DNA of 46,126 nucleotides, from the NCBI GenBank assembly GCA_964510625.1, contig CAZEBD010000001.1, positions 1 through 46,126 of the forward strand. Direction: 5' to 3'. Both the position numbers and the translations under genes were made by a program. Source of the stretch: an uncultured Planctomycetales bacterium. Its GTDB lineage: Bacteria > Omnitrophota > Gorgyraeia > Gygaellales > Profunditerraquicolaceae. This document shows, in pieces, positions 24,001 to 46,079 of the stretch (its first letter is position 1; each line of letters opens with the position of its first letter). The notes under the pieces were generated by a model, which saw only the letters and a program-made list of their open reading frames with translations, did not search any database and was not told the origin of the DNA.

Positions 24001-26393
24001 TTTTTATCTTGATAATCCATCCTTGTTACTGTTGTCTGCTTAGGAGCCATTTTAAAATAAACAGCTACTTGGGCTTTAGGGGTATTCAATCCTGTAGCAA
24101 CCAATACATTCCATTGAGGTAAAGGAGTAGTTCCCCCTTGAGGATTAATTAAATTAGGATTAAGTAAATTAGTTCTGACCTGGACTGCAGCATAAGCTAC
24201 GCCACCTTTTGAGATTGTTATCGCATCATCTGTAGTATAAGGAAGAACTGGCTTTGAAACGGTCCAACCTAAAAGAGTTCTAGCTTCTAATTGACCAAAA
24301 TTACTATAATTGGGCCTAAAATCTAATAAAGGATTGCTTGCGTTGGGACCTACTTCTACCCACAGATGGGCCTGAGGAGAAAAATACTTAGTTTTATCTG
24401 CAGAATCTGGTGTTAAACTAAAATCACTACCTGAATTTAATCCATAGATAGAAAGAGTTTGGGGTGTATACCCACCTAATTTATACCCTTCTTTTCTCAG
24501 TTGTTGCTGTAACTCACGATCATGAAGAATAAACCTACCATATTTCTTCATTAAATTAACGCTGTCTACAAATACAGTAATATCTCCGGTTTCAGTTCTC
24601 CCATAATGGACTGTTGATAAATCAAACGCTACCCCATTTATGGACTTCACACCCGAAAGGGGTCGGCCGGTATGAATAGCGTTTAAGAAACTATTCGTAA
24701 CTAAAGTAGCTTTAAGGGTATCAAGATAAAGACGCTCATCTGCAGCGGCTCGCTTAACTTCCGCTGGAGATATAAGAACATTGCCATACATATCGTAACC
24801 CGCTGGTTGCCAAGATTGTCTTGCAGGAGTAGTTGCTGCTGTTTGCTGTCTTACCGGGCCTACTGGTTGTTTAGTTTGAGTTGTTGCCGGCTGCCTCATA
24901 AAGCTGGGAGCAATGGGCGATTGAGACAAAAGATTAAAAGGATTTGCAGGAGTAGCTGCTGGCTGTTGTCTTACCGGGCCAATGGTCCGGGCAGGAGTAG
25001 TTGCTGCTGGCTTGGTTGTAGAACCAGGTACAAAACTCAATAAATTCGGCATCCAAGCAGGAACAGCCGCTGGCTGCTGTCTTACCGGGCCTACTGGTTT
25101 TTTAGTTTGAGTTACTACCGGTTTCTTAGTTGTAGCGGTCGGCTTCCAAGTAGACATAAAGGGTAATTGAGGCAAAAGATTAAAAGGATTTACAGTAGTA
25201 GTTTCCTGCTTCTTTACCGGGCCTACTGGTTTTTTAGTTTGAGCTGCTGCCGGTTTAAAACTAGAGACAAAAAACGACGGCATGAATATTGATATAGGTA
25301 TAGTCTTTTTAACAGTCACAGGCTGCTTAAAGACTACACTAACAACCTTAGGCACAACCTTAGGCACAACCTTAGGCACAAAACTAGGCACAAAACTAGG
25401 AAAAGAACCTTGTGGCTTAAAGGGATTACTAACAACCGGCGGCCGATAAACAACCCTCGTAAACGAATTAGTAGTCCGCCAGTAGTCACCTTTAGGTACA
25501 TATAAATAGGTGGTTGTTTTAGCATACTGTACGCCATTATTCCAATAATAATTGGTAGTAGTGTATGTCTTTGCGCCTAAAATTTGTTTGCTTTCCGCAG
25601 GGTCTAAAACCTTTAGACCTGAAGGAAGAATACTGGTTAAGGCATAACTACTAAATTTAGCTAAGAAGGTATCTTTCGGCAGGAACTCTTCGCGGTGATT
25701 ATCACTATAATAAACTTTATCTTCAGTCACCCTGGTGACTAAAATGTAATGCTCTTCGGTCAGGTGAGCGATAAACGGAGTAAGCGAAGCAAGGTCAGTA
25801 TCAGCCTTAACTTTGACCGGGTAGAGATCTGCTCCGAAAAATTTGGCGGCCTGGGAAAGGGCATAAAGGGATGTTTTAATAACTTCAGGTTGGCCAACCG
25901 GCTTAGTTACGTCATTGAGAATATCCACCGTAAGGGCCATAATCGCGATGTCCCCTTCAGCTGCCTTAATGCCCAAATAATTCAAATAATCATACAGAGC
26001 CTTTGAACCGCAGGGTTTTCCCTTTAACCACTCAGTAATCTCATCGATTCTCTGATTGGACATTTTCAAAGGCTTATCTAGATTTATGGTCAGATTGGAC
26101 GATACCTTTATTGCGTTTATGGGTTTATTGGCTATATCTTTGAGGATATTACGAATGGCTAAAGCAGTATCAATACTATTAAGATCTTTGAGATATCCCG
26201 GGGCAATTGCGCCTATAGCCGGCTTATTCCAGATTACCCGCCAGTCATATTCAACGGCCTGGGCGACCTGCTCAGGCAGGAAGACCGCCACAATAACAAA
26301 AGCAACCATGCGGATCCAAGTCTTAAAACTTGACTTGAATTCCTTCTTTGGTTGCTCAATCCGGACTTCTGTCTGTGGCATTTGTGTATTCAT
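1..26393 (-). CDS. Giant multi-domain membrane-associated protein; 5' end complete, 3' end runs off the window (>=8,797 codons inside the window)
   Basis: ATG at 26393-26391 with an in-frame TAA just upstream (26399-26397). I hand-translated the frame whose codon first bases lie at coordinates = 2 mod 3. It is stop-free and protein-like in every sampled stretch: 26393-25300, 22260-22200, 21720-21600, 18780-18540, 18360-18300, 17340-17280, 15060-14940, 14580-14400, 12240-12120, 10380-9900, 8280-8040, 5603-3700 and 120-3. The ORF track shows no long complete minus-strand ORF across these 26 kb, as expected if a single ORF lacks a stop inside the window. Confidence 0.85.
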   Translation of the reverse strand, partial: MNTQMPQTEVRIEQPKKEFKSSFKTWIRMVAFVIVAVFLPEQVAQAVEYDWRVIWNKPAIGAIAPGYLKDLNSIDTALAIRNILKDIANKPINAIKVSSNLTINLDKPLKMSNQRIDEITEWLKGKPCGSKALYDYLNYLGIKAAEGDIAIMALTVDILNDVTKPVGQPEVIKTSLYALSQAAKFFGADLYPVKVKADTDLASLTPFIAHLTEEHYILVTRVTEDKVYYSDNHREEFLPKDTFLAKFSSYALTSILPSGLKVLDPAESKQILGAKTYTTTNYYWNNGVQYAKTTTYLYVPKGDYWRTTNSFTRVVYRPPVVSNPFKPQGSFPSFVPSFVPKVVPKVVPKVVSVVFKQPVTVKKTIPISIFMPSFFVSSFKPAAAQTKKPVGPVKKQETTTVNPFNLLPQLPFMSTWKPTATTKKPVVTQTKKPVGPVRQQPAAVPAWMPNLLSFVPGSTTKPAATTPARTIGPVRQQPAATPANPFNLLSQSPIAPSFMRQPATTQTKQPVGPVRQQTAATTPARQSWQPAGYDMYGNVLISPAEVKRAAADERLYLDTLKATLVTNSFLNAIHTGRPLSGVKSINGVAFDLSTVHYGRTETGDITVFVDSVNLMKKYGRFILHDRELQQQLRKEGYKLGGYTPQTLSIYGLNSGSDFSLTPDSADKTKYFSPQAHLWVEVGPNASNPLLDFRPNYSNFGQLEARTLLGWTVSKPVLPYTTDDAITISKGGVAYAAVQVRTNLLNPNLINPQGGTTPLPQWNVLVATGLNTPKAQVAVYFKMAPKQTTVTRMDYQDKKGRTWSLAGFDGTAPIHLETKIDNLTMQVNYTRFMQLRGNITEAKAGIFFGDPIALDSTSTYGNGASNAPAAGWKPFTGWEADLLSPIQGAFNQAHNRFYENLYRPSNAAPGKDYVVGRDWVFSQDKVLAGYGGMIGGVNKTYLFSHRQVVADNFNTTGYDRYREVVFNKAGNPSSGIKSINIRAGKENIRIQDLMTQVLPKYGNASYQQLPVLDSAGNPLANGKTELKLFSMTNTQGQRFLEYNMNLNKYVFNAYQSGYSQGVSNGLAWLDKGSSYVGNSYVSLIGSQQGDFVETYRTGNGFGENSFQHLYFMDYAYKNNSWTNQIHPEFQIGSAAINDRYTKKELVDSLNYYAGFQSLYKDKINDANDLLQANIQAKELDAKLKANTSAANQLPAWDGVSEIRSHEQSRWEKTKDWFSRTFSMDRMYETKGKAQRAMDDYNSLAKEAAATGFMLDVERRWIDSIGSDWDLSRSMKAGEGLGLSNGKTATDIFSFLTQPENNIITKYGEAIQVIQGDFNTRLDKYNTVLVPKVESSFRTAEEYAEDLNSTPLPMLENMPMVHVMQYAYARTLEKDMKGGADPYHLVAEAYSSLPVGYGGWDLARDIALSGLDMYFAGAAGSFLKLGGSVIGQAIRGGATAAASGSTAALAEAAAARQAFTQALKRGVTLGLGNVALGQATSFAMNGKPLTNVNSNITLFATGFLSGSASNFARWGEAAGFSNLSRAVISQAALGGEVYLATGLVSDAVKGFKSGQQLTPSSIWGVYNKGLVYGAMAGGIFGGAGAVASSLSRVATSSWLTSSWAKLGLSTLGGAVVFPGAKTILEGDLSKFGANYSDWTNYARGGIIGLGLHGGYASGILSKSTGGLSNLSKVGWGLAKFSYGGGVTFAALPGVDLLKTGINYLRGQDGAYWNKADGFSYTKFGLDSAGSFALGGMTALYLGKANLAKNLSEYSVGGSEQATALFKTVKFNKFGNSLSGAELLYNRALAGALDWMLVSPAFTVGQGFWEGVKAKAGYYGSGLSAESQKLVNSSGLNSWFLTKGYYVKENGEMKLVLNSVTPKDILISGIEGPRSGLWMKPMIEVAQVRTSTANLGTVGGVGEKFINTLFRRPASVIKELRIGEKLATKVEAGDAKITFKDAVSNASAKFRQSVLEGANGSPKFSRLASAYPKTAKVLNKVIEGMQWADSNLITMPGIVTGIDTVIDIIDDQLLKATKATPIYDEIAPGQYSRQGYMSTGIKEVAKWIPFLRMSNFTPDKDLQLLTKGFTNDRGKFTSFEAFKNYEKLSSVVKEFGSISNALTKGDKQVASEITRVLTDQIGQGVHIADKAQAETMINSRSLESKERNITIVLPSGQETMLRVTLNDSLRLRAAQERLELFRTQGQYEEGLVKISSLNKRIGAELKRDYANRIERISALKGQVEREGLTKIEADFLNKQLVYENAYLNGSSLASVSSLGRAMYESLQRLNLELVKPDLLEALVKSADIKLEDGVLRSASKLLEKDIKNGLVNEKIVKDNVKLYLLDAFRRGLDKVSTPDIERLTNILKETREEIDAAAQTKSRLLDSRDYFMNKAKLSDDPGRDKILRERVLRSIEKKLRSIDAQIKTLETSSLRELNGQTNLKTGLFSKMKLGSQVATALYPELAVAPVLRAIDKSFENLSDRLEGGRIILAENGKDLVFMAKDRSDQYIAEGFNARVDLNKDSIQRKLEEITKSGIGKTEKIDKIFGLVARVIFEQVKKDTKGKIDLGRSNEQLGMIAGLLKENSVAQKTSGGKTLGFLAELIIRGVLSERTAGVRLNQLWVVKPGEAQMTIGGKGAIDFKELASLFGYELINGSSYYNEGNRSTAKLIDTLINPSKITILDQTTLGFLSLTKDASLREALMRQNTVRFDEFHLPFSSKVTYITADTQKIVDEAVIANTAKVQEALDPIMQNSGVAREQSSEGIEIKVTNKIEEAKGPGAYVYRDKGEYRLNQKAHDLAVEKIKTALGLKTDAEAKLFIKAYFDAFFADGSTVAVQNGEIKPVENGNVELNRVFSDVKFIAALYNRFIAEGKTIAREKLVYSETSSQGTVAGVLSLFNKGASIAGASGTLREVELMHALHLGRGITEVTQTEYKADVTEAKTEGEIKKAIIQAVSKRGPKGLLIIAKDAGQFEAVYNVLKDLKLELGKDLEVIDNFTLEHEVGKIANSMEGKVVLSNIKGATGIDYKGNNDLILVDAHNLSTSELLQALGRTARNQGETSKKSVFYQKDLLRDNVASPERSELYNKITESGVYGKKASELNLRRNADILQAEEISDALVHHIREAAYSKGLIEPLKLMISNTKGERQVKLEDILHEVLNIKEGDIDLSLGVSRDTNELIRESLQKVASQAEAVFGRIAKGDFGNNVTSQAAVIRDISRRLVNQADYAAIRARRDISIREATNLVEIAGVAKHSRFQEKILPDEMGKSAAKNQKAVAIVNSISFARTRAGERPLTRSQKDEVYKALDMVLSENGTRGSPEALSLVAKYVPALANVANSVSYLTLNTPESTQAVAELINNRVFASPDFADYSYDEKQRLADIFVGALNPALNYSDMLTVNTAYILMDKDAREKLKKDNYLSQAFLLNPTQFAEDMISPNWFLSSINAVKTALNNRKSLLLGSYIMFVSNNRLNLAQGDLKNIAKLDFNELDKVTGNILVRVGKESGGSLLEEVEYFLLKLALSKPNLKLLDFQKAKALWQTIDNLGFSAKELKEFNISNLLPAVAKKYEVLRIINKLLAKSDSELAVLIKGIVAKIDKKQKITLSDLGNNAELADSVIKLVDPFAPSFEVVKDRAVRLGETSVIAENDSIPFNSLLSSENEFLKFKTHVDRFTASIKGWVDRITTSMDADDIAKFSNTLTEDVNNSDLPDVKKKELISYIDAEAKSVLQDKLITAIAKGVLDAKKAAGETDDKPVGAKPNEIPSATTAPAVDTESTVVAVESTVQPQAAQPGENLATKYYGQVSQATGSNQGISAPFDTYRYIYHGTSIEHVLQMLFDSNGNLYSPDGNGDAVTLFTRMFTPVFANKFSDGIVLEFDSWALTENGVKLEAFGETSTHNKVPLRFLTDRAKVKLVQRLAESGALSSFDADQKNKIAELLGIDSLDQLTNQPSRQLPAETTSSVIKDLPEQPNNTGFTRIETALTVFAVGVTGAALPIIYGSGAGGVKGLIGLAVGVGLVGGGLVIKWLFNKYRNNKQSSPEQQTPAERTSPAIPAVPGQTVPNAPSVSASSTGLEVGAVLGGQTSQQEAMARSSFIHTISTQITEGYGRILSGLAPPVALAKAFLSKVLGASKSRGNVGALVVIVSSSVANAVRSTVELVGKLLGAQSANSRNGVEGQDAEGASSNVGNTSVEGVSINDSRVILGNSIGNKIARIISRITGSRSASAEADSKTGAEVLVVSTSTNGFVASIKAAVMIAARYLSRTKGEAENAENRGSIRAYGFSNDFSKASSYLKTLLFNHASHKKDGSLNRFGKITQKLAGSDRVKDSVAVKPIVEESELVKEVAAALEELTVAQAKRESIDRWNEHRKIELTQAEFIKLIDVIQAKKTELWEENGKKGNLEDYTQEAVEEISDWLAAQNKIRAAVGVVYRVGGDMDIVNAALKIIFDGKKYDGSKILEAGIQTRKLNKDEVDAYFTWLDAQNQAEVFIMAQKAIAIAREAIEKSGEAIEKSGEAIETAEESVGINKKNFEWMNGENCFTTIAPMPIRERLEAKRREVEAAGGMWTLRVAVQAYNDLVDQYNASHENQLEHLFVARVAPGRINEFIDQKVKFEIVEKLENSNFHAVMPFGYKVGKKGTFISAFGGNIANRKRLVNVAKFNFSGAGVITLVAESFNDKVEASEKENRVTEECYKDTDSAPIKGDSNNNAAQSADRKSDSSDTNSTTGSNGTTGTSSTTGITGTTGSTGSTGNSNGNSSSGFGSSNGDSSNGNAGMASIGLILAITAIAIAVSTALTVGGTTGVAAGAVAVVVALTAVITGANKNVGNLPNANRVEGLPQTGKVTMEHPRADTSDKVTSNSRAPPAGIFNDLSNALRNLKDNLERELARTAFRNNIVSRYTAAQLRNAIKALNDTIIALDRIANNPALFVIHFDMIARRREDDDIAAALLKKLIGAIKNRGLNNLHGRYFRAARLIAHRYGLPYASMIELTNTFILLNETDEFINTLKEESYVRAEALKARENKVNSTRINLAAGRISLTNENTVASEILNNVLNILDNSVGGYAQGAEIVVNAIKLAFGEARAGLANIAGALFSSVTGALSRIGSFLISLPILVAQLYELGRAITNGQTTGTENKTTAVQAAVNTVAVSLSNAVNAVVSFLANVSRELSNAIEVLPVADTVDVPAGLPVAGSLAASNGVKSANSHTVITGLIASVRKLISNKVSKSEVKEEGQSLIISKLVGIGSAIISLAPPVVGLVARFVANAINQLTNVIKERRNENGRHIKNERRISSDRHAVQNTQTSGIKTGRDSGNDEFAQYFSRKAEQLNRLYKTFSSLAKQGVQFVRAHAVAASLATIAFQIAVILSQITLTLPSAIISLLGIVVTAIFVKGGVTCAQSRSKTSVWTTSLTTPRIIQPSLQPVSKVVIRSESFWSKIQVQFMFVMVGLGTNWSGRSPPTSKAASRKPARLSQSTKSTQSTGLTNFIKALTSPTVAGKRVAPVIVRKSVQPLLQRVISGALATITMFFASVAPAMAASNGTNANAGFNLNYLWYLSVLAVAAAGFLSYRRKARQNVLRNAPGKNGFAASFLHRPNDNSLEFGDKYFLIYAKDFPYFKHETKNLPVVDGLVTHISATPLKLALKNYPELKYGGIVAPAPRSRYGFKIVKKNTNSVFSPITWGFILGSIVMSTGDVFNSLDIEYLFNYGLLGAFLFMTGASLVAVNRYRKNESRIKPVIMNPIVLISYFIMLAMYISGYFFNGWTLPPHGYSQDFLGPIVWSAVIISGAPVFFKKGALAALSVSHNKYRALVFKAAVSLFTFSAGTELAQGLGWIHGTFDWLDFVAAGLGSLAIFVIANISYARSRSSRGHNWRPVGQFVGALRYPSVAKDFVRMGLATYRIALNHIERTNGIRAPPVIRNIRALFYPIASRKDGQISYSVEIEDEAVRNQVQLHEAQATERKAIVAQAQAFKNKNAGAAAATLKAAVKSRLSNLSFTIKFIGYGLIDELSGTFKNILTKRGVVNLVFAFIIASSVFATTLNSFAGNSTALTAAITETQQGTGEFSKIQDIIESDTDDIGYGGLNIDNPQVSYDNQGRYSFIKDGQGRIRQEYKYSADGLTGTILNYDENGKVIETGVVTYDKNVPIYVTREDLVKEVPLPVEKQQKDPDYSALPSYQGTVGQRVSGNKGDWVWGIYDWWTNSEDKAAAQAAITAWGEDHPALFTSGNLNVVYTIPANYSNLGNEKLNVMIVKEGLTQADEDAIKAWSKVNKDLFTEKNANTNIVYTIPENYNGLSNKELKVIIVQENLTTADENAIAAWSDVHKDLFTEANAKSSTVYTIDADYNGLVNKKLDIMIVQEDLSPENEAAVAAWSKDNQDLFTEANANTNIVYTIPEKYNGLNNDELKVTIVQENLTTADENAIAAWSDAHKDLFTEENANNNAVYTIEANYNGLGNKKLDVMIVQENLTTADEDAIAAWSKVNQDLFTQENANNSIVYTIEADYNGLGNNVLKVTIVQENLTTADEDAIAAWSKVNQDLFTQENANNGTVFTIPANYNGLQNSKLNVFIVYEATTDADENAIIAWSNANQNLFNENYLGTTHIIPANYNGLGNKALKVEIQLNKDWKDSNDPDLSGKSAGRKALEDAEAKLVAALNEFTQAKAEFDTLTAKYDMETKQTELEAAKSKLSELEQAYEDAKAAYETLVTADPAVAAAKEAMDNAQAELTTAEQNITDLEKKLEDANKLVSDLSQQFVEAKAVLDQKQIAYNDSKAAFDVTSGDLTDPAVAAAKEAMDNAQAELTIAEQNAADLSKQVNDANRVVSDLMVEIDAAKIIRDQKEIDYNNAKAAYETASANLADPAIAAAKEVMDKAQADINDQKDLIVNLEKNYNDLKAKYDELVKQWGFNFNPDSHVTPYDLSVAQDTLDAKQATVDQFKEEVKKLREAISNEIKYIAAALEFTAKAQNITAKAQNITAKAQNITAKHQSINAQAQIYGWQWQPWNTMKQYPVLWRPIEIRWSGEKSASRIETFTYSQVAVFDPNFGENGAYVIPDYGFYYKHTEKAQAYTGYTIITDEEYSRVVVVNGKEELRVKFKTTKIKDLEGNVYPVSSARYIKDPLNIGVDDVFLYQLRNFMSKFGVEFYYSETNSNTKTQRTDNINNTTNEFIANLGNEGIVKFSVYEKIMAGTGEVIYLLYDGVHGDPRMTITKDKVNFTYPEFTFPKENVETKTIDMEYYFHTPALEQTAFDQQAWSANSSDKFHGVTLSFGVPWTDRQDIFLSLESLGELKAGTEASSADKIKAANELLDQMEQNRINVVRVYNTMTGDLWDALANHHIKVIQVIPNLDDRNNPGQDIKSRTFLNYVAMYKDHPAAFIWELGNEYNYHPEWFDNNIDNWYIEAEKAAGFIKQIDPNHAVSCSFGYSGTGSIDGDFSAAVSDVPSADIWGLNIYQWDNPTEILLEAKKLANGKGIYLSESGADSWNEYLQKEDQAGQAKAAANIWQAAKNADILGVTYMEAFDEWWKSTADPKVQDNYGTHFGVPYDNFGNEEWFGWWNVKGEPKEVVGTMQAIWNKEDALNKLFSPNMKWLGGSFNGENFTNKVEAMIDTATASGDINVYRQEAEPVNEEQSAVDHYQRVFSYFKKVPNIPYLLPAYGIITDFAGQVHLKTEFEFYNPWAASENKYVKFEKSNLTKFQTLSRDGVPTGYLYREPGDDFGRTWLEVSLSGEDIYLVDSFDTQNVYQPKVAYVLKWQGEDKGYVAIKQMKAQLDENGLVAGVEVKTVAQDLNLNAEQKMDLKRAIAQTIGNLTPTEVDELTDDEINKLVPDDFEMVATDAKLGDSTFIEYSVPGDSYGRILAIDRGTVFITSRFMELSPMALSGYFVDKASGQKVLEILNTDNGDKEYGLPADTDIQHYRVRYRDPNTGEVWYRWQYADVRVLGDFVYEEHGHFETLATPYKAPQGEKGESVDINVRWVPETRLKVDQWSKTRDEAVATSMYNVIDGEEFLAYTNQTIGGKAFPGIASEEARQQILAQLEQNGMTDADKNTLLNTNFREVKRTYADASTGRSGKIEYYYYLPSSPTKDYVMMKDNYHTVININWSNEKRGYENTFEFDNNTNSITGRVYNFSIETDSNGEKIRVYDTKYEDPARESITQIALRMDGRLYYQVNEGTWSRNPAVKVYFDGQELPLKSEVTDTNGVIESSKGPLYNYYIVFLNDKPGEYWIFARNINDSGEAYDAVNFVNGVQIDKNSPRIQTMEQAEAEKLAQRDGTYFKYGITIFEKADKYNPVLWKDYKNGSALNSFVEYLKVQFQKHIPQNSTGHNLTRGHNYLPSIAILLATAVGLVFIFILLRLGVWSGSWLSRLFGITNKKLVRLAQGVDHRIQPNLGAIKKKNAYRVWLEKYIADFNFLTPFIDYLEEKTIQYAQDRVAGRINPAAGERVVAIPDGNLDAEQAKALDQWIKRNSRTINPNNHGNTYTIRANYNRFGNKTFQITLAIIDVDFIDKQIVFWKSIIGYHSGIGSILDLLRAKGFYKFKGGYIFSTGEFKDLFKRFSKAGKDPIVELDLQKLIDSKALVPPVSWNYATLTQEQRMLCELLIDKIRDTLKEMRKKDGLIHYTYPISTFVFQFFIYPFRYFLTALFRFKLDENAKKELTDSDKAQNKIASRFWKAAIGAWLIWNIITWTVALIFCVPSLPILAVIFIAIPIMLLNFRVSFRAVVYLLFRVVEEDMSRIMGYHKVRTMREARKHLPTILGTGEGKEFFRAAINWLYSGPQGRMISQEKYKELRGILKCANQNDEKSMGKAISKLKTLGDWEAEQYFTQWLN
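3760..4700 (-). other. Clan GH-A (GH5-like (beta/alpha)8) glycoside hydrolase-type domain of the giant protein
   Basis: Translation gives RINVVRVYNT, then HPAAFIWELGNEYNY with the candidate acid/base Glu at codon 4337-4335, then KGIYLSESGADSW with the candidate nucleophile Glu at codon 4055-4053. The two Glu residues are 94 aa apart, a typical NE...E spacing for clan GH-A. Confidence 0.6.
5529..5600 (-). repeat. 21-bp in-frame tandem repeat x3.4 (AKAQNIT heptads)
   Basis: The plus-strand unit ggcggtgatgttctgggcctt occurs at 5529-5549, 5550-5570 and 5571-5591, with a partial fourth copy. The minus strand reads TAKAQNITAKAQNITAKAQNITAKH. Confidence 0.9.
6057..6355 (-). repeat. 225-bp (75-aa) repeat inside a coiled-coil-like segment (about 5610-6620) of the giant ORF
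   Basis: 60 bp are identical between 6071-6130 and 6296-6355, encoding ADPAVAAAKEAMDNAQAELT. A third, diverged copy lies at ~5860-5900 (ADPAIAAAKEVMDKAQADI). The surrounding sequence is rich in A/E/K/Q/L/D. Confidence 0.8.
6625..7880 (-). repeat. 8 tandem 159-bp (53-aa) repeats in the giant ORF
   Basis: The unit is approximately ADE(N/D)AIAAWS.....DLFTE.NAN...VYTI.A.YNGL.N..L.V.IVQENLTT. The period was measured from 6841 versus 7000, which is 159 bp. A 92-bp stretch is identical between 6841-6932 and 7000-7091. Confidence 0.9.
8340..10430 (-). other. Polytopic membrane block of the giant protein (about 10 hydrophobic helices)
   Basis: Translation gives successive hydrophobic segments: AVAASLATIAFQIAVILSQI, LPSAIISLLGIVVTAIFV, ISGALATITMFFASVAPAMAA, YLWYLSVLAVAAAGFLSY(RRKAR), ITWGFILGSIVMS, LFNYGLLGAFLFMTGASLVAV, IVLISYFIMLAMYISGYFF, LGPIVWSAVIISGAPVFF, FVAAGLGSLAIFVIANI and VVNLVFAFIIASSVFATTL. 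Confidence 0.6.
10018..10284 (-). CDS. Nested 88-aa ORF in an alternative frame inside the giant ORF; hypothetical protein with its own Shine-Dalgarno
   Basis: Listed in the ORF track. On the minus strand the ATG (10284-10282) is preceded by AAAGGAGGTGTAAC. The segment is a GC-rich island with C-ending codons. The translated sequence looks globular (MCPIKIEDIRMDHIVDYTKNY...). The giant frame stays open across it. Confidence 0.5.
   Translation of the reverse strand: MCPIKIEDIRMDHIVDYTKNYSTFATAREQSSNKIRIFLVQDSGAVHVRNGGTWHELVGPLAADVKSRIEEARTLVPVYKVNSIYGVN
12911..12970 (-). repeat. 21-bp in-frame tandem repeat (about 3 copies) in the giant ORF
   Basis: The plus-strand unit tttctatagcttctcctgatt occurs at 12911-12931 and 12932-12952, with a diverged third copy. 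It encodes EAIEKSG EAIEKSG EAIETAE. Confidence 0.85.
17250..18750 (-). other. SecA-like DEAD-motor / SF2 helicase-type ATPase domain embedded in the giant protein (aa ~2550-3050)
   Basis: Four motifs were checked codon by codon. Motif I is SVAQKTSGGKTLGFLAELI (18686-18669). Motif II is RFDEFHLPF (DEFH at 18329-18318). Motif III is IAGASGT (17750-17731). Motif VI is LLQALGRTARNQGETSKKSVFY (~17325-17280). From memory they are collinear with SecA MKTGEGKTL / DE.D / GMTGTA / RGRSGRQGDPGSSRFYLS. Confidence 0.7.
20900..22260 (-). other. Gly/Ala/Ser-rich hydrophobic (glycine-zipper-like) block of the giant protein
   Basis: Checked translation examples are DPYHLVAEAYSSLPVGYGGW and SIWGVYNKGLVYGAMAGGIFGGAGAVASSLSRVATSSWLT. 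The region contains many GxxxG/GG-containing hydrophobic segments. No family is assigned. Confidence 0.45.
24846..25400 (-). repeat. In-frame Pro/Lys/Val/Thr-rich repeats within the giant ORF: a 12-bp microrepeat plus about 4 imperfect ~40-aa units
   Basis: The plus strand shows aaccttaggcac x3 then aaaactaggcac x2 at 25343-25400, which reads FVPSFVPKVVPKVVPKVV. The unit cttaccgggcc(t/a)a(c/t)tgg... recurs near 24850, 24969, 25081 and 25214, giving KKPVGPV(R/K)QQ motifs. Confidence 0.75.
25644..26051 (-). other. C39-like (papain-fold, double-glycine-peptidase type) cysteine peptidase domain of the giant protein
   Basis: Translation gives EWLKGKPCGSKALYDYL (Cys128, codon 26012-26010), LTEEHYILVTRV (His215, codon 25751-25749) and VYYSDNH (Asp231). 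The Cys-His spacing is 87 aa and the His-Asp spacing is 16 aa, as in C39 peptidases. The domain follows an N-terminal hydrophobic anchor, WIRMVAFVIVAVFLPEQVAQA. Confidence 0.6.
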
Positions 26394-26527
26394 CTTTTAC
26401 TTAATGCAATTAAATAAAAAATAAATTTTTCCCCTTACCCCAAGTCTTTTTAGATTTTTAAATCCACTCTTCATAAGGGTCACCAGTTCTATTTTTAAAA
26501 CCTTTTTAAAAACTCTTATTAAGATTT

Positions 26528-26557
26528 GAAACAAAATCGAGTTGTCAATTCCAACTC
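26528..26557 (-). terminator. Terminator-like hairpin plus U tract forming the putative riboswitch expression platform
   Basis: The minus strand reads GAGUUG-GAAUUGA-CAACUC followed by GAUUUUGUUUC, immediately 3' of the aptamer P1 strand. The stem is short (6 bp). Confidence 0.4.
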
Positions 26558-26562
26558 TCGTC

Positions 26563-26652
26563 GGTCTGGCAACCCGGCTATCCTGAGTGTTGCATTGATT
26601 AAGGACCCGTGGCTTTGTGTCCTTAGATTACTCTAAGTTTACCTTTTTGACC
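26563..26652 (-). promoter_or_regulatory. c-di-GMP-I (GEMM-I)-like riboswitch aptamer in the giant-gene leader
   Basis: The minus-strand RNA reads GGUCAAAAAGGUAAACUUAGAGUAAUCUAAGGACACAAAGCCACGGGUCCUUAAUCAAUGCAACACUCAGGAUAGCCGGGUUGCCAGACC. It shows a P1 of GGUC/GACC, a GGUAAAC element, a GNRA-capped hairpin (CUUAGA-GUAA-UCUAAG), ACAAAGCC.CGGG and GAUAGCCGGGUUGCC. These elements are collinear with the Vc2 GEMM-I sequence as I recall it. Confidence 0.6.
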
Positions 26653-26669
26653 TCTTCAACTTACACTCA

Positions 26670-26698
26670 AATATAACACCTGAGATAGACGCTGTCAA
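26670..26698 (-). promoter_or_regulatory. Sigma70-type promoter for the riboswitch and giant gene
   Basis: The minus strand reads TTGACA (26698-26693), a 17-nt spacer, then TATATT (26675-26670). This lies about 10-20 nt upstream of the aptamer. Confidence 0.55.
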
Positions 26699-26794
26699 GT
26701 AAAAAATCGCCAATTTTGGTAACGCTTTCTTTCTCCGGTCCTGCTGCTAAAATCGCAGCCATTCTACCGTAGAAACACACACTGCAAAACATCC

Positions 26795-26836
26795 AAAAAG
26801 GGGACGTTTCCCTCAAAAGGGGACGTTTCCCTTTTT
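26795..26836 (+). repeat. REP doublet (2 direct copies of GGGGACGTTTCCC); left inverted repeat of the RAYT unit
   Basis: The sequence is AAAAAGGGGACGTTTCCCTCAAAAGGGGACGTTTCCCTTTTT. Positions 26795-26832 are the exact reverse complement of 27468-27505. Confidence 0.9.
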
Positions 26837-27029
26837 AGGATGAGATTAATAAGATATTTCTGCTTATAGTTAACAGTTAGATATGCTGTATATATCGCTT
26901 AGTTTTGTTTGGACAAATAAGTGAATAGATTGGACAATCTTAAATTCAAAACAATTAGACTGGACAATATCTAAAGCGGGATTTTTAAGTTAGATTCTTA
27001 CACTAATTTCGTCAATTACTATGGAGATA

Positions 27030-27051
27030 GGGGGACGTTTCCCTCCCCCTT
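27030..27051 (+). repeat. Single REP copy forming a hairpin just upstream of the RAYT remnant
   Basis: The sequence AGGGGGACGTTTCCCTCCCCCT has a 7-bp stem (AGGGGGA/TCCCCCT) and contains the GGGGACGTTTCCC core at 27031-27043. Confidence 0.8.
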
Positions 27052-27085
27052 GTGATTAAGTTTAGTGTATTTTAGGAGGTGTATT

Positions 27086-27455
27086 ATGCCCAGATCCAGC
27101 AGAATAATTGAAGGAAAATCCGCTATTCATGTCATGTGCCGGGGTAATAATAAGCTGCCTATGCGGCCATCTCTGGCAAGGCAGATATAAGAGCGTTGTG
27201 ATTAAATCTAACAGCCAAATCTTACAATGCGGAAAATACATAGAACTTAACCCGGTTCGGGCCGGTATAGTCACAGATCCCGCTCAATATCAATTTAACA
27301 GCTATAGATATTACGCTTTGAGCCATCAAGATTCACTGATTACCCCAAGCCCGGTGTACGAGAATATGGGGATAGGGCCTTTAAAAGCCAGGCAGGCTTA
27401 TATTAGTTTTGTTATAGACAAGGAAATTGGGGGTTTGATACAGAAATCCCGGTAG
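27086..27455 (+). pseudogene. Degenerate REP-associated tyrosine transposase (RAYT / IS200-like Y1 transposase) with an internal deletion and a frameshift
   Basis: A strong SD (TAGGAGGTGTATTATG) is followed by MPRSSRIIEGKSAIHVMCRGNNK..., the RAYT N-terminal HV..RGN motif, which stops at 27188-27190. The +1 frame (track ORF 27108..27455) carries GHLWQGRYKS....YIELNPVRAGIV. The roughly 70-80 aa that normally hold the HUH motif are missing. Confidence 0.7.
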
Positions 27456-27467
27456 AAAAGTTAAGCA

Positions 27468-27505
27468 GGGAAACGTCCCCTTTTGAGGGAAACGTCCCCT
27501 TTTTA
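27468..27505 (-). repeat. REP doublet in inverted orientation; right inverted repeat of the RAYT unit, overlapping the tadC stop codon
   Basis: GGGAAACGTCCCCTTTTGAGGGAAACGTCCCCTTTTT is a perfect 38-bp reverse complement of 26795-26832. Confidence 0.9.
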
Positions 27506-37897: not shown

Positions 37898-40057
37898 TTA
37901 TGGTTTGGCAGGCTTAAATATGTCATCCGAAATAGCTACACCGCGTACGCGGATCTCATCTAAGAAGGATGGCTTATAGCCGGTAGCGGTAAAATAACCC
38001 AAGACCTTGCCCTGGGGGTCAACCCCGGTCTGCTTAAAAACAAATATTTCATCCATATTGATATGCATTTCATCCTTCATTCCGGAGACCTCGGAAATCC
38101 CCAGAACTTTACGGCTACCATCGGAAAGGCGGGCCGTATGCACAATAATATCTACCGCAGATGAGACCATCTCCCGGATCGCCCGGGTCGGAAGCTCGAT
38201 GCCGGACATAAGGATCATCGAATCCAGACGGCTTAAAACATCCGAAGCGGAGTTGGCGTGGATTGTGGTCATCGAGCCATCATGGCCGGTATTCATCGCT
38301 TGCAACATATCTAATGATTCAGTCCCGCGGCATTCTCCGACAATAATCCTGTCCGGGCGCATACGTAAAGTATTGCGGAAAAGATCCCGAATGGCTAAAC
38401 CGCCTTTACCCTCAATATTGGGCGGACGGGATTCTAAACGGATCCAATGCCGCTGATGCAGCCTTAACTCTGCAGCATCCTCCAAAGTGATGATCCTCTC
38501 CACTTCGGGAATATACTCTGAGAGGGCATTAAGCACCGTAGTCTTACCGCTGCCGGTGCCGCCGGAAACAATCAAATTTTTACGGCATAACACACAGGCC
38601 CGGATAAAATCCGCCATCGCCGAAGTAAGCGAATCAAACTTAAGCAAATCTTCGATATGGTACCTTTCCTGGCGGAATTTTCTGATGGTTAAAGTCGGCC
38701 CGGTCAAAGACAAAGGAGAAATTATCGCATTGACCCTTGAGCCATCGGTAAGTCGGGCATCCACCATCGGTACCGACTCGTCAATACGCCGTCCGATAGG
38801 AGCAATAATCCGTTCAATGATCGTCCTGACCTGGTCATTAGAGATAAACTTTTTATTCGTCAGTTCGATCTTACCGAAACGCTCGACATAAACCTCATTT
38901 TTATTATTTACCATAATATCCGTAATATCCGGGTCAGCCAATAAATCTTCTAAGGGGCCTAAGCCCAATGCTTCATCTAAGATCTCCTTGATCAGGCGGT
39001 TTCTGACATCCTGGGAGGGGATAAAACTTCCCACCTCCTCCGCCAAAAGGTTACTGACGATTGCCCCGGCCCGGTCTTTAATATCCCTGGCTTTTTTACG
39101 GTCGCTGAATACTTTTAAATCCAGCCGCTTAATGTTCATACTATCTAAGAGGCGGCTGTGTATTTTGCGCTTCAGGACCAGAATATCATCTTTTTCCTCG
39201 TCGACATCCGGCTCAAGCACAGCTTCTTTTAATCCCTGTTTCTCCCAAAATTGGCCGGTTTTTTCCAAAGCCGCTTCCTTGATCTGCAGTTGCCCGATAT
39301 CCTGACGGTCCATAAATATGCCTTTATCCTGGATCAGTGTTTCGGCCAGGGCAAAAAAAGCCTGGGCAATTTTTGAGCGGGGAGCATGGATGACCACCGG
39401 AGTCTCCAGGTTAACCGCCTGGTTGACTAATTTACCGTCGGAAGGGATCTTTTCAATAATATCTACCGGCAGGTTGACCCGGATCTCCTGCCAGCTGATA
39501 CTGGATAAGGATTCCGACCGGTTCAGCACGATCTTGATCATGCTTAAAGGAAAATGTAAAAATTGCAGGGTATCCAGAGCCCATTTGGTCTGATAGATGG
39601 AGAGCACATCCGGAGTAACGACAAAAAGGATAAGGTTGGCCTGGTTTAAAACTGCCAGGAATACGTCACTAAAGCTTTTTCCGGCATCAACCACGATATG
39701 GTCATAATCTTTATCTATAAATTTAAAGACCTCGGCGATCCCTTCTGCGGAAAGGTGGCCTGATTGCTGCGGCTTAAGCACGCCGGCTAAGAAATCAACA
39801 TTATTAAACCGGGAGGAAACTACAAAATCCTGCTTTTTTGTCGACTGCGGCTGGCGCTTGAGAAACCCCATTAAATCCGCCATACAGTTCTGCGGGCGCA
39901 CCCCCAAAACATGCGCCATATCGCCGACAACCTGGGTGTCTAAATCCACCGCACAGACCCGGCTGCCTTCTTTAGCCAAAGCAGTAGCTAAATTGGCCGC
40001 GATCAACGTCCGGCCGACGCCGCCTTTAGTGCTGAAAATTACGGTTATTTTTGCCAT
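37898..40057 (-). CDS. cpaF: Fusion of a CpaE/TadZ-like ParA/MinD-type domain with the CpaF/TadA secretion ATPase (719 aa)
   Basis: The N-terminal ~250 aa read KITVIFSTKGGVGRTLIAANLATALAKEG...VDLD (deviant Walker A, as in TadZ/CpaE). The C-terminal ~430 aa carry LIVSGGTGSGKTTVLNAL, IITLEDAAEL, RMRPDRIIVGECRG and NTGHDGSMTTIHAN, which are CpaF/VirB11-type motifs. Confidence 0.85.
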   Translation of the reverse strand: MAKITVIFSTKGGVGRTLIAANLATALAKEGSRVCAVDLDTQVVGDMAHVLGVRPQNCMADLMGFLKRQPQSTKKQDFVVSSRFNNVDFLAGVLKPQQSGHLSAEGIAEVFKFIDKDYDHIVVDAGKSFSDVFLAVLNQANLILFVVTPDVLSIYQTKWALDTLQFLHFPLSMIKIVLNRSESLSSISWQEIRVNLPVDIIEKIPSDGKLVNQAVNLETPVVIHAPRSKIAQAFFALAETLIQDKGIFMDRQDIGQLQIKEAALEKTGQFWEKQGLKEAVLEPDVDEEKDDILVLKRKIHSRLLDSMNIKRLDLKVFSDRKKARDIKDRAGAIVSNLLAEEVGSFIPSQDVRNRLIKEILDEALGLGPLEDLLADPDITDIMVNNKNEVYVERFGKIELTNKKFISNDQVRTIIERIIAPIGRRIDESVPMVDARLTDGSRVNAIISPLSLTGPTLTIRKFRQERYHIEDLLKFDSLTSAMADFIRACVLCRKNLIVSGGTGSGKTTVLNALSEYIPEVERIITLEDAAELRLHQRHWIRLESRPPNIEGKGGLAIRDLFRNTLRMRPDRIIVGECRGTESLDMLQAMNTGHDGSMTTIHANSASDVLSRLDSMILMSGIELPTRAIREMVSSAVDIIVHTARLSDGSRKVLGISEVSGMKDEMHINMDEIFVFKQTGVDPQGKVLGYFTATGYKPSFLDEIRVRGVAISDDIFKPAKP

Positions 40058-40058
40058 T

Positions 40059-41669
40059 TTATTCTATCTGATAAATTATCGGAATATCCACCCAGACTTC
40101 ATTTTCTCTGATCTCAGGCGGAAAGGGAGGATATGGGGAAGCTGCCCGGGCACTTTTGAGTGCGGCATCGTTAAGCACTCGGTAGCTGGAGGGTTCCTTG
40201 ATCTTTGCTTCCAGCAAATCTCCCTGCGGAACCAATTTAAGGCTTAATTTTACCGCCCCCTGAAATCCGGCATCCTTGGCTTCAGCAGGATAAAGCAGAT
40301 TATCTAAAATTTTCTTCTGGACCAATTTTGAATACCGCAAAACCGGGTTTTGTATTAAATCATCTCCGACAGACGGGATACTGATATTGGCCCGCGGAGC
40401 CTTTAGTGCAGCCTTAGACTGATCCCCCATGTCGACTAAACGCGGAGTAAGGGTAATAAACAGTTCAGTATCATTCATCTTGCTGGTATCGGATTCCCAG
40501 CCTTTTTGAGTAGTCCGCTGCCTGAAGAATACTCCCAGGACCGGGATATCGGAAAGCCAAGGCGTCCTTCTTAATTCTTCAGCCGTCTTCTTCTTGATCA
40601 ATCCGCCTAAGGCCATCGTTTGGCCGTTATCTAAGAAAAGTTCGGTAGTGGCGGTGCGCTTAGTCATTTTATAAGCAAAAGCATAATCGGTCTGCACCTC
40701 ATCCCCAACATCACTGACCACTACATCTAAGTTCAGGTGGATACGCCCGGATTCTTCCAGGCGCGGCTTGATATTCAGGATAATGCCATATTCTTTATAT
40801 TCTACTGACCCGGAGGTTGTCGCCCCTACCGTACCCGTACCGCTGGTTCCGGGAGTAACCGTACCGCTTAATACCGGCACCTCTCCTCCGACGACCAATT
40901 TTGCCTCCTTACCGCTCTGGCAAGCCAGCCGCGGGCGGGAAAGAATACGCGCCTTGCCTTCCTGGATCAAAGCGTCCAATTTCAAAGTAAATGCCTCACG
41001 CGTAACATCGGCAATGGTAAATAATTTAGCTAAGGAGGAAACACCCGGACTGATTGCCCGGGAACCAACTTCGGTCAGATTGATCTCGCCCGGCCAGGTT
41101 AAACCCAAAGTATCCTGGCTTCCGCGGTTAAGCTCGATTACCTGGACATCGATTTCAATTACCGCTTCCTCTTCTTTTACCGCTACTAAATCCACGGTCT
41201 TATTTTTCAACTGCCCCAAAGCCAAAGCCAGTTTGTCTTTATCTTTAGCAAATTTCACGCTGCCTAAAAGCACGACCCGGTTTTCTTCATCTTCAGCTTT
41301 AGTATAAATATTTGGCAGATTTAACGAAGCAAGTATATTATCAATACGCCGCTTGATTTCATTGGTATCTTCAATAAAGACCCTTAGGCGGTAAGAGGAC
41401 TCGCCGAAATTATCCCAAACCACCAAGGTAGTGCTTCCGGCGGATTTCGGGTTAATCGTCAACTCCGTTTTGCTGATGCTGGCCACATCGGCAACTGTCG
41501 GATTACCAATCGCTATTTTCTTGGGCGAATTTACCGGAATGGCTTTCGACTGCCCGACGTAAAGTTTTATTTCTTCATCTACATCCGCTGCGCCGGCAGA
41601 ATAACCCCGGAAAGGCAAGGCTAGGACCAAAGTAACTATGCATAATAGGCCAAAAAATAACTTTCTCAT
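40059..41669 (-). CDS. cpaC: Tad secretin (CpaC/RcpA-like) with a C-terminal TonB_C-like domain (536 aa)
   Basis: It has a signal peptide and the pilus N-terminal domain (LYVGQSKAIPV..IAIGNPTVADV). The secretin core reads GGLIKKKTAEELRRTPWLSDIPVLGVFFR. The last ~85 aa read LLYPAEAKDAGFQGAVKLSLKLVPQGDLLEAKIKEPSSYRVLNDAALKSARAASPYPPFP. Confidence 0.8.
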   Translation of the reverse strand: MRKLFFGLLCIVTLVLALPFRGYSAGAADVDEEIKLYVGQSKAIPVNSPKKIAIGNPTVADVASISKTELTINPKSAGSTTLVVWDNFGESSYRLRVFIEDTNEIKRRIDNILASLNLPNIYTKAEDEENRVVLLGSVKFAKDKDKLALALGQLKNKTVDLVAVKEEEAVIEIDVQVIELNRGSQDTLGLTWPGEINLTEVGSRAISPGVSSLAKLFTIADVTREAFTLKLDALIQEGKARILSRPRLACQSGKEAKLVVGGEVPVLSGTVTPGTSGTGTVGATTSGSVEYKEYGIILNIKPRLEESGRIHLNLDVVVSDVGDEVQTDYAFAYKMTKRTATTELFLDNGQTMALGGLIKKKTAEELRRTPWLSDIPVLGVFFRQRTTQKGWESDTSKMNDTELFITLTPRLVDMGDQSKAALKAPRANISIPSVGDDLIQNPVLRYSKLVQKKILDNLLYPAEAKDAGFQGAVKLSLKLVPQGDLLEAKIKEPSSYRVLNDAALKSARAASPYPPFPPEIRENEVWVDIPIIYQIE

Positions 41670-46001: not shown

Positions 46002-46079
46002 TGGTAGCCCCAACCGGATTTGAACCGGTGTTTACAGGCTGAGAACCTGACGTCCTAGGCCAGGCTAGACGATGGGGCC
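46002..46079 (-). tRNA. tRNA-Glu (anticodon CUC), with the CCA encoded
   Basis: The minus strand folds as GGCCCCA-TC-GTCT-AGCCTGGCCTA-GGAC-G-TCAGG-TTCTCAG-CCTGT-AAAC-ACCGG-TTCAAAT-CCGGT-TGGGGCT-A-CCA. This is a cloverleaf with U33, anticodon CTC, A37, a 4-nt variable loop and a TTC T-loop. Confidence 0.85.

Follow-up and report, generated by a model that had tools for sequence, protein, structure and literature searches.

A conserved class I c-di-GMP aptamer and a competing terminator stem in the leader of an Omnitrophota giant gene: a probable ON riboswitch

The window analysed here is a stretch of 46,126 nucleotides (nt), positions 1 to 46,126 of contig CAZEBD010000001.1 (GenBank assembly GCA_964510625.1), from an uncultured bacterium deposited under the Planctomycetales and placed by its GTDB lineage in the Omnitrophota. 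Giant genes of the Omnitrophota are among the longest known in bacteria, and their hosts are uncultured. The minus strand of the window carries one such gene behind a leader in which a model reading the letters alone (the original prediction) had proposed a promoter, a riboswitch for cyclic di-GMP (c-di-GMP) of class I (GEMM-I) and a terminator hairpin. The gene is indeed longer than the 26 kb it had claimed, with an open reading frame (ORF) that stays open from 26393 to position 1. The elements from the promoter to the end of the aptamer, and this ORF, are as follows.

26698-26670, minus strand: sigma-70-type promoter, TTGACA at 26698-26693, a 17-nt spacer, TATATT at 26675-26670 and a TG extension at 26678-26677
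26652-26563, minus strand: c-di-GMP-I (GEMM-I) aptamer, from the Rfam match and comparative alignment
26652-26649 with 26566-26563, minus strand: aptamer helix P1, GGUC with GACC
26642-26617, minus strand: aptamer helix P2, G26642/U26641 with A26618/C26617, and CUUAGA 26637-26632 with UCUAAG 26627-26622 around a GUAA loop
26614-26603 with 26583-26571, minus strand: aptamer helix P3
26643, 26616 and 26569, minus strand: predicted ligand contacts G20, A47 and C92 (numbering of the Vibrio cholerae Vc2 RNA), from alignment to the Rfam consensus
26393-1, minus strand: giant ORF of at least 8,797 codons, without a stop codon up to window position 1 and continuing beyond the window

The promoter, already recognized in the original prediction as TTGACA-N17-TATATT, agrees with the consensus at 11 of 12 positions and was the top promoter-like site in a scan of 26000-27400. 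We infer a transcription start near 26663. This strong promoter would start a leader of approximately 270 nt, the first 100 nt of which would form the aptamer fold. Comparable promoters (TTGACA-N16-18-(TG)TTATAYT, a match at 10 or more of 12 positions) were found 17-45 nt 5' of G20 in 68 of 72 related leaders. The sequence right after the -35 box (CTTGACAGCGACGA / GCGTCTA; 26680-26698 in the window, and in the related promoters) is conserved beyond what a promoter needs and could be an operator.

When the entire window was scanned against Rfam 15 at gathering thresholds, two matches were obtained, one to a tRNA and one to the c-di-GMP-I clan. The latter lies at 26652-26564 on the minus strand and covers the full RF03167 model (66.5 bits, E 1.2e-13, gathering score 59). 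A second member of the clan, CL00126, reached its own gathering score at the aptamer and was masked by clan competition. Inspection of the sequence also revealed GGUAAAC, GACACAAAGCCACGGGUCC and GGAUAGCCGGGUUGCC, and every aptamer element that had been named beforehand (P1 as GGUC/GACC, GGUAAAC, the GNRA-capped helix, GACACAAAGCCACGGGUCC and GGAUAGCCGGGUUGCC) lies where it had been placed. The unpaired G preceding P2 (G26643) and the C following P3 (C26569) are canonical. P2 is capped by GUAA in the window and by a GNRA loop in 72 of the 73 aptamers described below. The partners of the interhelical C44-G83 pair are the C of GGAC (26619) and the G of UAGCC (26578), both (nearly) invariant in 21 relatives.

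To place this RNA among its relatives, 48 N-termini were aligned and 80 loci were fetched from species-representative genomes (approximately 75 genomes). In 20 of 20 loci scanned with Rfam, a match to the same clan is present approximately 260 nt 5' of the gene. A covariance model made from 21 aptamers was then run on the 80 loci and the window. It recovered 73 aptamers (46.6-113 bits), from 71 loci and from the window itself; the aptamer-bearing loci come from approximately 69 species-level genomes. In 68 cases, 135-285 nt separate the end of the aptamer from the matched N-terminus, and three loci (L062, L073, L078) have an extra ORF between the aptamer and the homologous gene. The 19 pairs of P2 and P3 are paired in 99.5% of cells in the 21 relatives, with compensatory changes at six pairs; none of 500 shuffles was as good, and slid registers gave 25-47% pairing. 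The GEMM-I identity put forward in the original prediction is thus borne out by a score above the gathering threshold, by the clan peer that also passed and by comparative covariation. Close relatives score 58-64 bits on RF01051 (59.5-64.4 for L015, L022 and L072), for which the gathering score is 35. We have little doubt that the window RNA is a genuine class I c-di-GMP aptamer.

Nine of the 80 loci have no aptamer match. The upstream sequence is missing in three of them. L059 and L060 have lost the aptamer and terminator precisely and keep the promoter, the AU block and the small upstream ORF. In L050 and L071, which lack the aptamer, only a simple CCGAAU...AUUCGG hairpin and a U-run are left. 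Another ORF precedes the gene in L046 and L064.

Two further observations were made on the aptamers. Locus L067 has a second c-di-GMP-I aptamer at 82-237, with the same terminator module, ahead of a transglutaminase-like gene; an intact IS200-like transposase gene and an ORF6N gene come next, before the riboswitch that belongs to the giant gene itself. In numerous loci (L061, L080, L062, L077 and L068 among them), a copy of the P3 5' strand, AAGCCACGG, stands just 5' of P1. It is complementary to CCGACGG 3' of the aptamer and may extend P1 or provide an alternative pairing. Its counterpart in the window's clade is a conserved GUAAGUUGAA (26661-26652).

The region 3' of the aptamer was compared by printing all leaders in parallel and by folding each whole leader under two constraints, an enforced aptamer or a blocked P1. 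A conserved module became apparent, consisting of CCGACG, a variable loop, (A)UUUGACA(A/G)YYCGG and UUUUUAUUU. The UUGACAAYCCGG ahead of the U-run complements the 3' strand of P3, and its CAAYCCGG part complements the invariant CCGGGUUG. The resulting structure and the smaller hairpin of the original prediction are made up as follows.

26576-26529, minus strand: predicted composite intrinsic terminator, from folding and covariation
26576-26570 with 26544-26538, minus strand: outer stem of the terminator, CGGGUUG (P3 3' strand) with CAACUCG
26568-26566 with 26548-26546, minus strand: additional terminator pairs, CAG with UUG
26564-26551, minus strand: nested terminator hairpin, CCGAC-GAGA-GUUGG
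26537-26529, minus strand: terminator U-run, A-UUUU-G-UUU
26557-26539, minus strand: local hairpin of the original prediction, GAGUUG-GAAUUGA-CAACUC, then GAUUUUGUUU, from sequence and folding

In the window, the composite terminator folds at -16.8 kcal/mol (z -3.4), with none of 200 shuffles equally stable, and it also emerges when the whole leader is folded unconstrained. An independent MAFFT alignment was made of 71 leaders; over 70 distinct ones, pairing of the homologous stem reaches 94.2%, and slid registers gave 20-44%. Compensatory changes are present: one pair is U-A in 38 leaders, C-G in 17 and U-G in 6, and another is G-C in 65 and A-U in 3. The nested hairpin covaries too (GAAUAC/GUAUUU, GAAUAUC/GGAUAUUU, GAAAUCC/GGGAUUU). 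When aptamer constraints were omitted, 52 of 73 leaders paired the five bases before the U-run with a site centred 6 nt 5' of C92, which is the P3 3' strand. Over all leaders, the full terminator has a mean energy of -18.5 kcal/mol, and 70 of the 73 leaders reach -12 kcal/mol or lower; in 62 of them all, the terminator ends no more than 2 nt from the U-run. The structure left to fold while the aptamer keeps its strands has a mean energy of -4.1 kcal/mol.

A hairpin and U-run at 26557-26528 had been proposed as an expression platform overlapping the 3' side of P1. Both are present, but they do not overlap the P1 3' strand (26566-26563). The hairpin folds at -7.9 kcal/mol (z -2.0; 8 of 200 shuffles fold equally well) and is confined to the window's own clade (approximately 18 leaders), in which it offers an alternative partner for the 3' arm of the terminator. 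The long P3-based stem is approximately 9 kcal/mol more stable. As a weak, single-clade element, the local hairpin was therefore rejected as the main terminator in favour of the larger, conserved and covarying stem built on the P3 3' strand. An earlier model that had GCCGA / the 3' strand of P1 as the partner of the U-proximal CGG (GCCGAAUU:AGUUCGGC) was also set aside, since it applies to one clade only and both the folds and the covariation favour the P3 3' strand. Likewise, the UUGACA of the expression platform was considered as the -35 box of a second promoter; inspection found no suitably spaced -10 box, and the scan returned none. This motif is explained as the complement of the P3 strand.

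The rest of the leader, between the U-run and the giant gene, contains four further features.

26528-26487, minus strand: AU-rich block, CUUAAUAAG, then UUUUUAAAAA-GG-UUUUAAAAA
26484-26397, minus strand: upstream ORF (uORF) with its ribosome-binding site (RBS), GGUGA at 26484-26480, AUG at 26474, 25 codons (MKSGFKNLKRLGVRGKIYFLFNCIK) and UAA at 26399-26397
26441-26431, minus strand: near-invariant GGGGUAAGGGG block inside the uORF
26426-26388, minus strand: 18-bp AU-rich hairpin, AUUUAUUUUUUAUUUAAU 26426-26409 with AUUAAGUAAAAGAUGAAU 26405-26388

The AU block is found in most leaders as CUUAnUAAG followed by a motif of the GUUUUAmAAA type. The original prediction treats these elements as the leader of the giant gene. 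The first AUG after the aptamer (26474) opens only the 25-codon uORF, which stops 3 nt ahead of the giant ORF's AUG and in the same frame. Most related leaders have a comparable ORF that begins with ATG, is 21-35 codons long, spans the G-rich GGGGUAAGGGG block and ends between -7 and +14 nt from the main AUG; in about 8-11 loci, its equivalent is fused in frame with the giant ORF. The GGGGUAAGGGG block is present in 69 of 73 leaders. Because it tolerates 1-nt insertions and deletions and is read in two frames (as GVRG or WGKG, depending on the species), it is conserved at the nucleotide level, and a coding constraint of the uORF was rejected as its cause. A repeated genomic motif was also rejected, as the window holds a single copy. 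The block resembles a Shine-Dalgarno site (UAAGGGG vs the local UAAGGAGG); neighbouring genes use the Shine-Dalgarno sequence TAAGGAGGT, the local consensus. Inspection of the region of the giant ORF's AUG revealed no Shine-Dalgarno site. The 5' arm of the AU-rich hairpin is the 3' part of the uORF, and its 3' arm holds the uORF stop and the giant AUG (26393-26391). This hairpin has a local fold of -12.5 kcal/mol and recurs across the window's clade. In most other clades, the partner of the G block is instead a pyrimidine run further downstream, with U's after it (43 of 69 leaders). An AUG that lacks a Shine-Dalgarno site and is buried in a hairpin behind a uORF would fit translational coupling.

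From these elements we propose the following mechanism. Without the ligand, the P3 3' strand (CGGGUUG) would pair with the downstream CAACUCG, and the long stem with its nested hairpin would form a terminator of approximately -17 kcal/mol abutting the U-run, so that transcription would stop near 26530. With c-di-GMP bound, P3 and P1 would be held in the aptamer and the long terminator would be blocked. RNA polymerase would then read through into the 25-codon uORF, with the giant ORF following by translational coupling. The terminator takes the P3 3' strand, which the aptamer needs for P3, and the two structures are therefore mutually exclusive; from this exclusion it follows that the ligand should block termination, which corresponds to an ON switch. 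That the RNA works through transcription termination is highly probable. Given a working riboswitch, we rate the ON polarity as quite likely, because the long stem is conserved, covaries and is approximately 9 kcal/mol stronger, and because several clades lack the alternative hairpin. The explanation as a whole, with its promoter, c-di-GMP aptamer, competing terminator and read-through into the giant ORF in the ON state, appears likely to us.

Several points weigh against this account. Ligand binding, termination, the ON polarity and coupling through the uORF are predictions made from the sequence. The local hairpin of the window's clade (-7.6 to -7.9 kcal/mol, 2 nt from the U-run) is compatible with a closed aptamer and may make the switch leaky or give it a different polarity, and some local hairpin persists in the bound-state fold of 34 of the 73 leaders. 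In the window, the outermost pair of the terminator is a C-A mismatch (CUCGA, not CUCGG). The minimum-free-energy folds leave co-transcriptional kinetics out. The RF01051 score of the window RNA itself was masked by clan competition, and the RF03167 score alone was reported. Finally, a review cautions that the polarity of c-di-GMP riboswitches is not to be extrapolated between species (PMC6366702).

The alternative that survives best is an OFF switch, in which high c-di-GMP would stop transcription. Here, an extended P1 of the bound aptamer (GGUC:GACC plus an upstream GUUG with CGAC) would remove CCGAC-GAGA-GUUGG as an anti-terminator, and the freed GUUG would build the GAGUUG/CAACUC terminator. 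The serial overlap of the extended P1, CCGAC-GAGA-GUUGG and the local hairpin in the window's clade speaks for it, as does the local hairpin's presence in the aptamer-enforced fold of 16 of this clade's 18 leaders. However, the hairpin on which it depends has the low stability given above and stands 2 nt from the U-run, and it is missing outside the clade, whereas conservation and covariation link the 3' arm of the terminator to the P3 3' strand, in a much stabler stem. In clades of the L014 and L039 types, nothing forms beside the U-run when the aptamer is closed. We consider the OFF switch unlikely.

A real aptamer could also act chiefly on translation or RNA stability instead of termination. 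The 3' region of the aptamer (GGGUUGCCAG) might pair with the RBS region of the uORF (CUGGUGACCC, 26486-26477), or the 5' end might be protected, as reported for Vc2. A 10-bp long-range helix does appear in the minimum-free-energy fold of 26665-26470, both V. cholerae class I riboswitches act without termination (PMC6366702), and a uORF and a start-codon-sequestering hairpin lie downstream. Yet a conserved, covarying stem with a U-run is the hallmark of intrinsic termination. On inspection, the long-range helix is not kept outside the window's clade, and more than 75 nt separate the aptamer from the uORF start. It is improbable that this route is the chief one.

The choice of ligand could be questioned, because the top Rfam model is RF03167, the GGC variant. 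The ligand might then be 3',3'-cyclic GMP-AMP (cGAMP, c-GAMP), as for the GEMM-Ib RNAs, or an unknown one implied by the label 'c-di-GMP-I-GGC'. The two consensus sequences read GACGCGAAgCc (RF03167) and GACGCAAAgCc (RF01051), that is, G vs A at the A47 position, and the label 'GGC', read off these consensus sequences, would refer to positions 20, 47 and 92. At this site (GACGC-G/A-AAGCC), the window sequence is GACACAAAGCC, and all 73 sequences have A in the column. Despite the top score, the RNA was thus not filed under the variant, as the G that defines the model is absent. RF03167 probably outscores RF01051 owing to the short unstructured end of P3 and to the P1 pairs, which only RF03167 models. 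In Vc2, G20, A47 and C92 touch c-di-GMP, and A20 is the mark of RNAs that bind c-GAMP or are bispecific (PMC4744006, PMC6140456). With the Vc2 numbers provisionally placed on the model columns, the triad is G-A-C in 68 of the 73 aptamers, A-A-C in four (L015, L022, L025, L045) and C-A-C in one (L072); A47 and C92 are invariant. The four A20 relatives carry the c-GAMP/bispecific signature (PMC6140456), but the window RNA has G20, not the A that characterizes GEMM-Ib. Since G20, A47 and C92 are all present, its predicted binding site is canonical. Wild-type Vc2, with G20, binds c-GAMP with a dissociation constant of approximately 10 µM vs a picomolar one for c-di-GMP (PMC6140456). Overall, c-di-GMP is very likely the ligand, and a different one is very unlikely.

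A non-functional relic or a chance covariance-model match is effectively refuted. The loss of the aptamer in a few homologous leaders (L059, L060, L050, L071), which makes it dispensable in some lineages, might be cited in favour, but the E value is 1e-13, and the aptamer recurs in one and the same place in 71 loci, where compensatory changes affect the aptamer as well as the terminator.

The protein encoded by the giant ORF starts with an N-terminal transmembrane segment and has a Pfam Peptidase_C39 match at residues 174-253. A SecA/helicase-like motif, QALGRTAR, is found near residue 3030; a Pfam search gave no match for this SecA-like region (residues ~2500-3300) or for several ORFs of the pilus locus. 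The N-terminal 600 residues are up to 85-89% identical to proteins of metagenome-assembled genomes of Candidatus Omnitrophica/Omnitrophota. The pilus locus that had been noted beside the gene is a Tad/Flp-type cassette, upstream on the same strand, with two T2SSF proteins (TadB/C), a TadE/G-like protein, a T2SSE ATPase, a secretin and RcpC/CpaB, and also a Rotamase_2 peptidyl-prolyl isomerase, small proteins with class III signal peptides and a TPR protein. The T2SSE ATPase of the cassette has an N-terminal ParA/MinD-like fusion (37898-40057, minus strand), and the secretin has a C-terminal TonB_C domain (40059-41669, minus strand). The same arrangement upstream of Omnitrophota giant genes has been described (West-Roberts et al., bioRxiv 10.1101/2023.11.21.568195). 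The other Rfam match of the window lies upstream of the pilus locus.

46005-46079, minus strand: tRNA gene, Rfam 51.8 bits

Between the last pilus gene and the riboswitch promoter, a decayed IS200/RAYT-type insertion sequence was identified at 26795-27504. An ORF at 27108-27455 on the plus strand is the C-terminal half of a Y1 transposase, with 41% identity over 87 residues (E 1e-22) to the intact Y1_Tnp protein of L067. Inverted repeats of 43 nt border it at 26795-26837 and 27462-27504; each consists of two copies of the 18-nt unit AAAAGGGGACGTTTCCCT, a third copy of which lies at 27027-27044.

Two papers deal with Omnitrophota giant genes (West-Roberts et al., bioRxiv 10.1101/2023.11.21.568195; a 2026 preprint on long proteins), and they report a conserved upstream secretion/pilus cassette; one of them notes nearby pilZ genes. 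Neither mentions a riboswitch or c-di-GMP control ahead of the giant genes, and a full-text literature search for Omnitroph* with riboswitch returned unrelated papers only. While the riboswitch class is already known, its systematic placement ahead of C39-type giant genes of the Omnitrophota appears to be unreported. A conserved c-di-GMP switch would be the first concrete, testable statement on when these genes are expressed, and it would tie them to the surface-attachment side of c-di-GMP signalling. The RNA, of approximately 140 nt, can be tested in vitro without culturing the host. There is also a point for annotation, as Rfam-based pipelines will name these RNAs 'c-di-GMP-I-GGC' despite their canonical binding site.

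Taken jointly, the elements of the leader also permit a wider reading, which we offer as a tentative one and hold to be doubtful: the leader could be a phylum-wide, multi-checkpoint licence for proteins of ~9,000 to more than 30,000 residues. As a first step, the c-di-GMP ON riboswitch would decide the entry of RNA polymerase into the gene. As a second step, the uORF with its Shine-Dalgarno-like GGGGUAAGGGG would end at the giant AUG, which lacks a Shine-Dalgarno site and is masked by a hairpin, and only ribosome-loaded transcripts would be translated or extended. If this is true, c-di-GMP would be the master signal that deploys the giant proteins and the adjacent Tad-like machinery at the attachment to prey or host, and in a few lineages the sensor may have been converted to cGAMP recognition (A20) or deleted.

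Among known systems, the window RNA shares with V. cholerae Vc2 (RF01051) the three helices, the GNRA-capped P2, the conserved junctions and the contacts G20, A47 and C92. The genetic context is that of class I riboswitches, with surface, pilus and adhesion genes (PMC6366702). In contrast to the RF01051 consensus, the distal part of P3 in the window is an unstructured loop of approximately 19 nt without the extra stem, and Vc2, unlike the mechanism proposed here, acts without termination (PMC6366702). The RF03167 variant is alike in being the best-scoring model, with the same short P3 and a modelled P1, but differs from the window RNA and all 73 aptamers, which have A and not G at the A47 position. 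The Geobacter GEMM-Ib riboswitches for 3',3'-cGAMP have the same fold, and their A20 is found in four relatives of the window RNA, whereas the window RNA itself has G20. The Bc1 c-di-GMP riboswitch (PMC11218506), with a long expression platform and two terminators, is similar in having a long leader with more than one terminator-like element 3' of a class I aptamer. Most leaders related to that of the window have a second hairpin and U-run inside the uORF; within the window's clade, its place is taken by the AU hairpin over the start codon, which is not a terminator.

The closest comparison is with Bc2, a class I riboswitch upstream of the adhesin gene cap (collagen adhesion protein) in Bacillus thuringiensis, which is experimentally proven to be an ON switch (PMC4933901). 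Both combine a class I aptamer with an intrinsic terminator, whose formation is prevented by the ligand to give read-through into a large surface or adhesion target (PMC4933901); on the side of the window, this arrangement is predicted. They differ in that Bc2 belongs to another phylum, the gene in the window is at least 10 times longer, the window's terminator takes its 5' arm from the P3 3' strand and encloses a nested hairpin, and there is a uORF after it. The polarity of Bc2 was proven by experiment, and the window RNA is known from its sequence alone. In the window RNA, a predicted stem-loop and a U-run lie directly 3' of the aptamer and the stem shares nucleotides with it, which is the structural layout of a Bc2-like ON switch.

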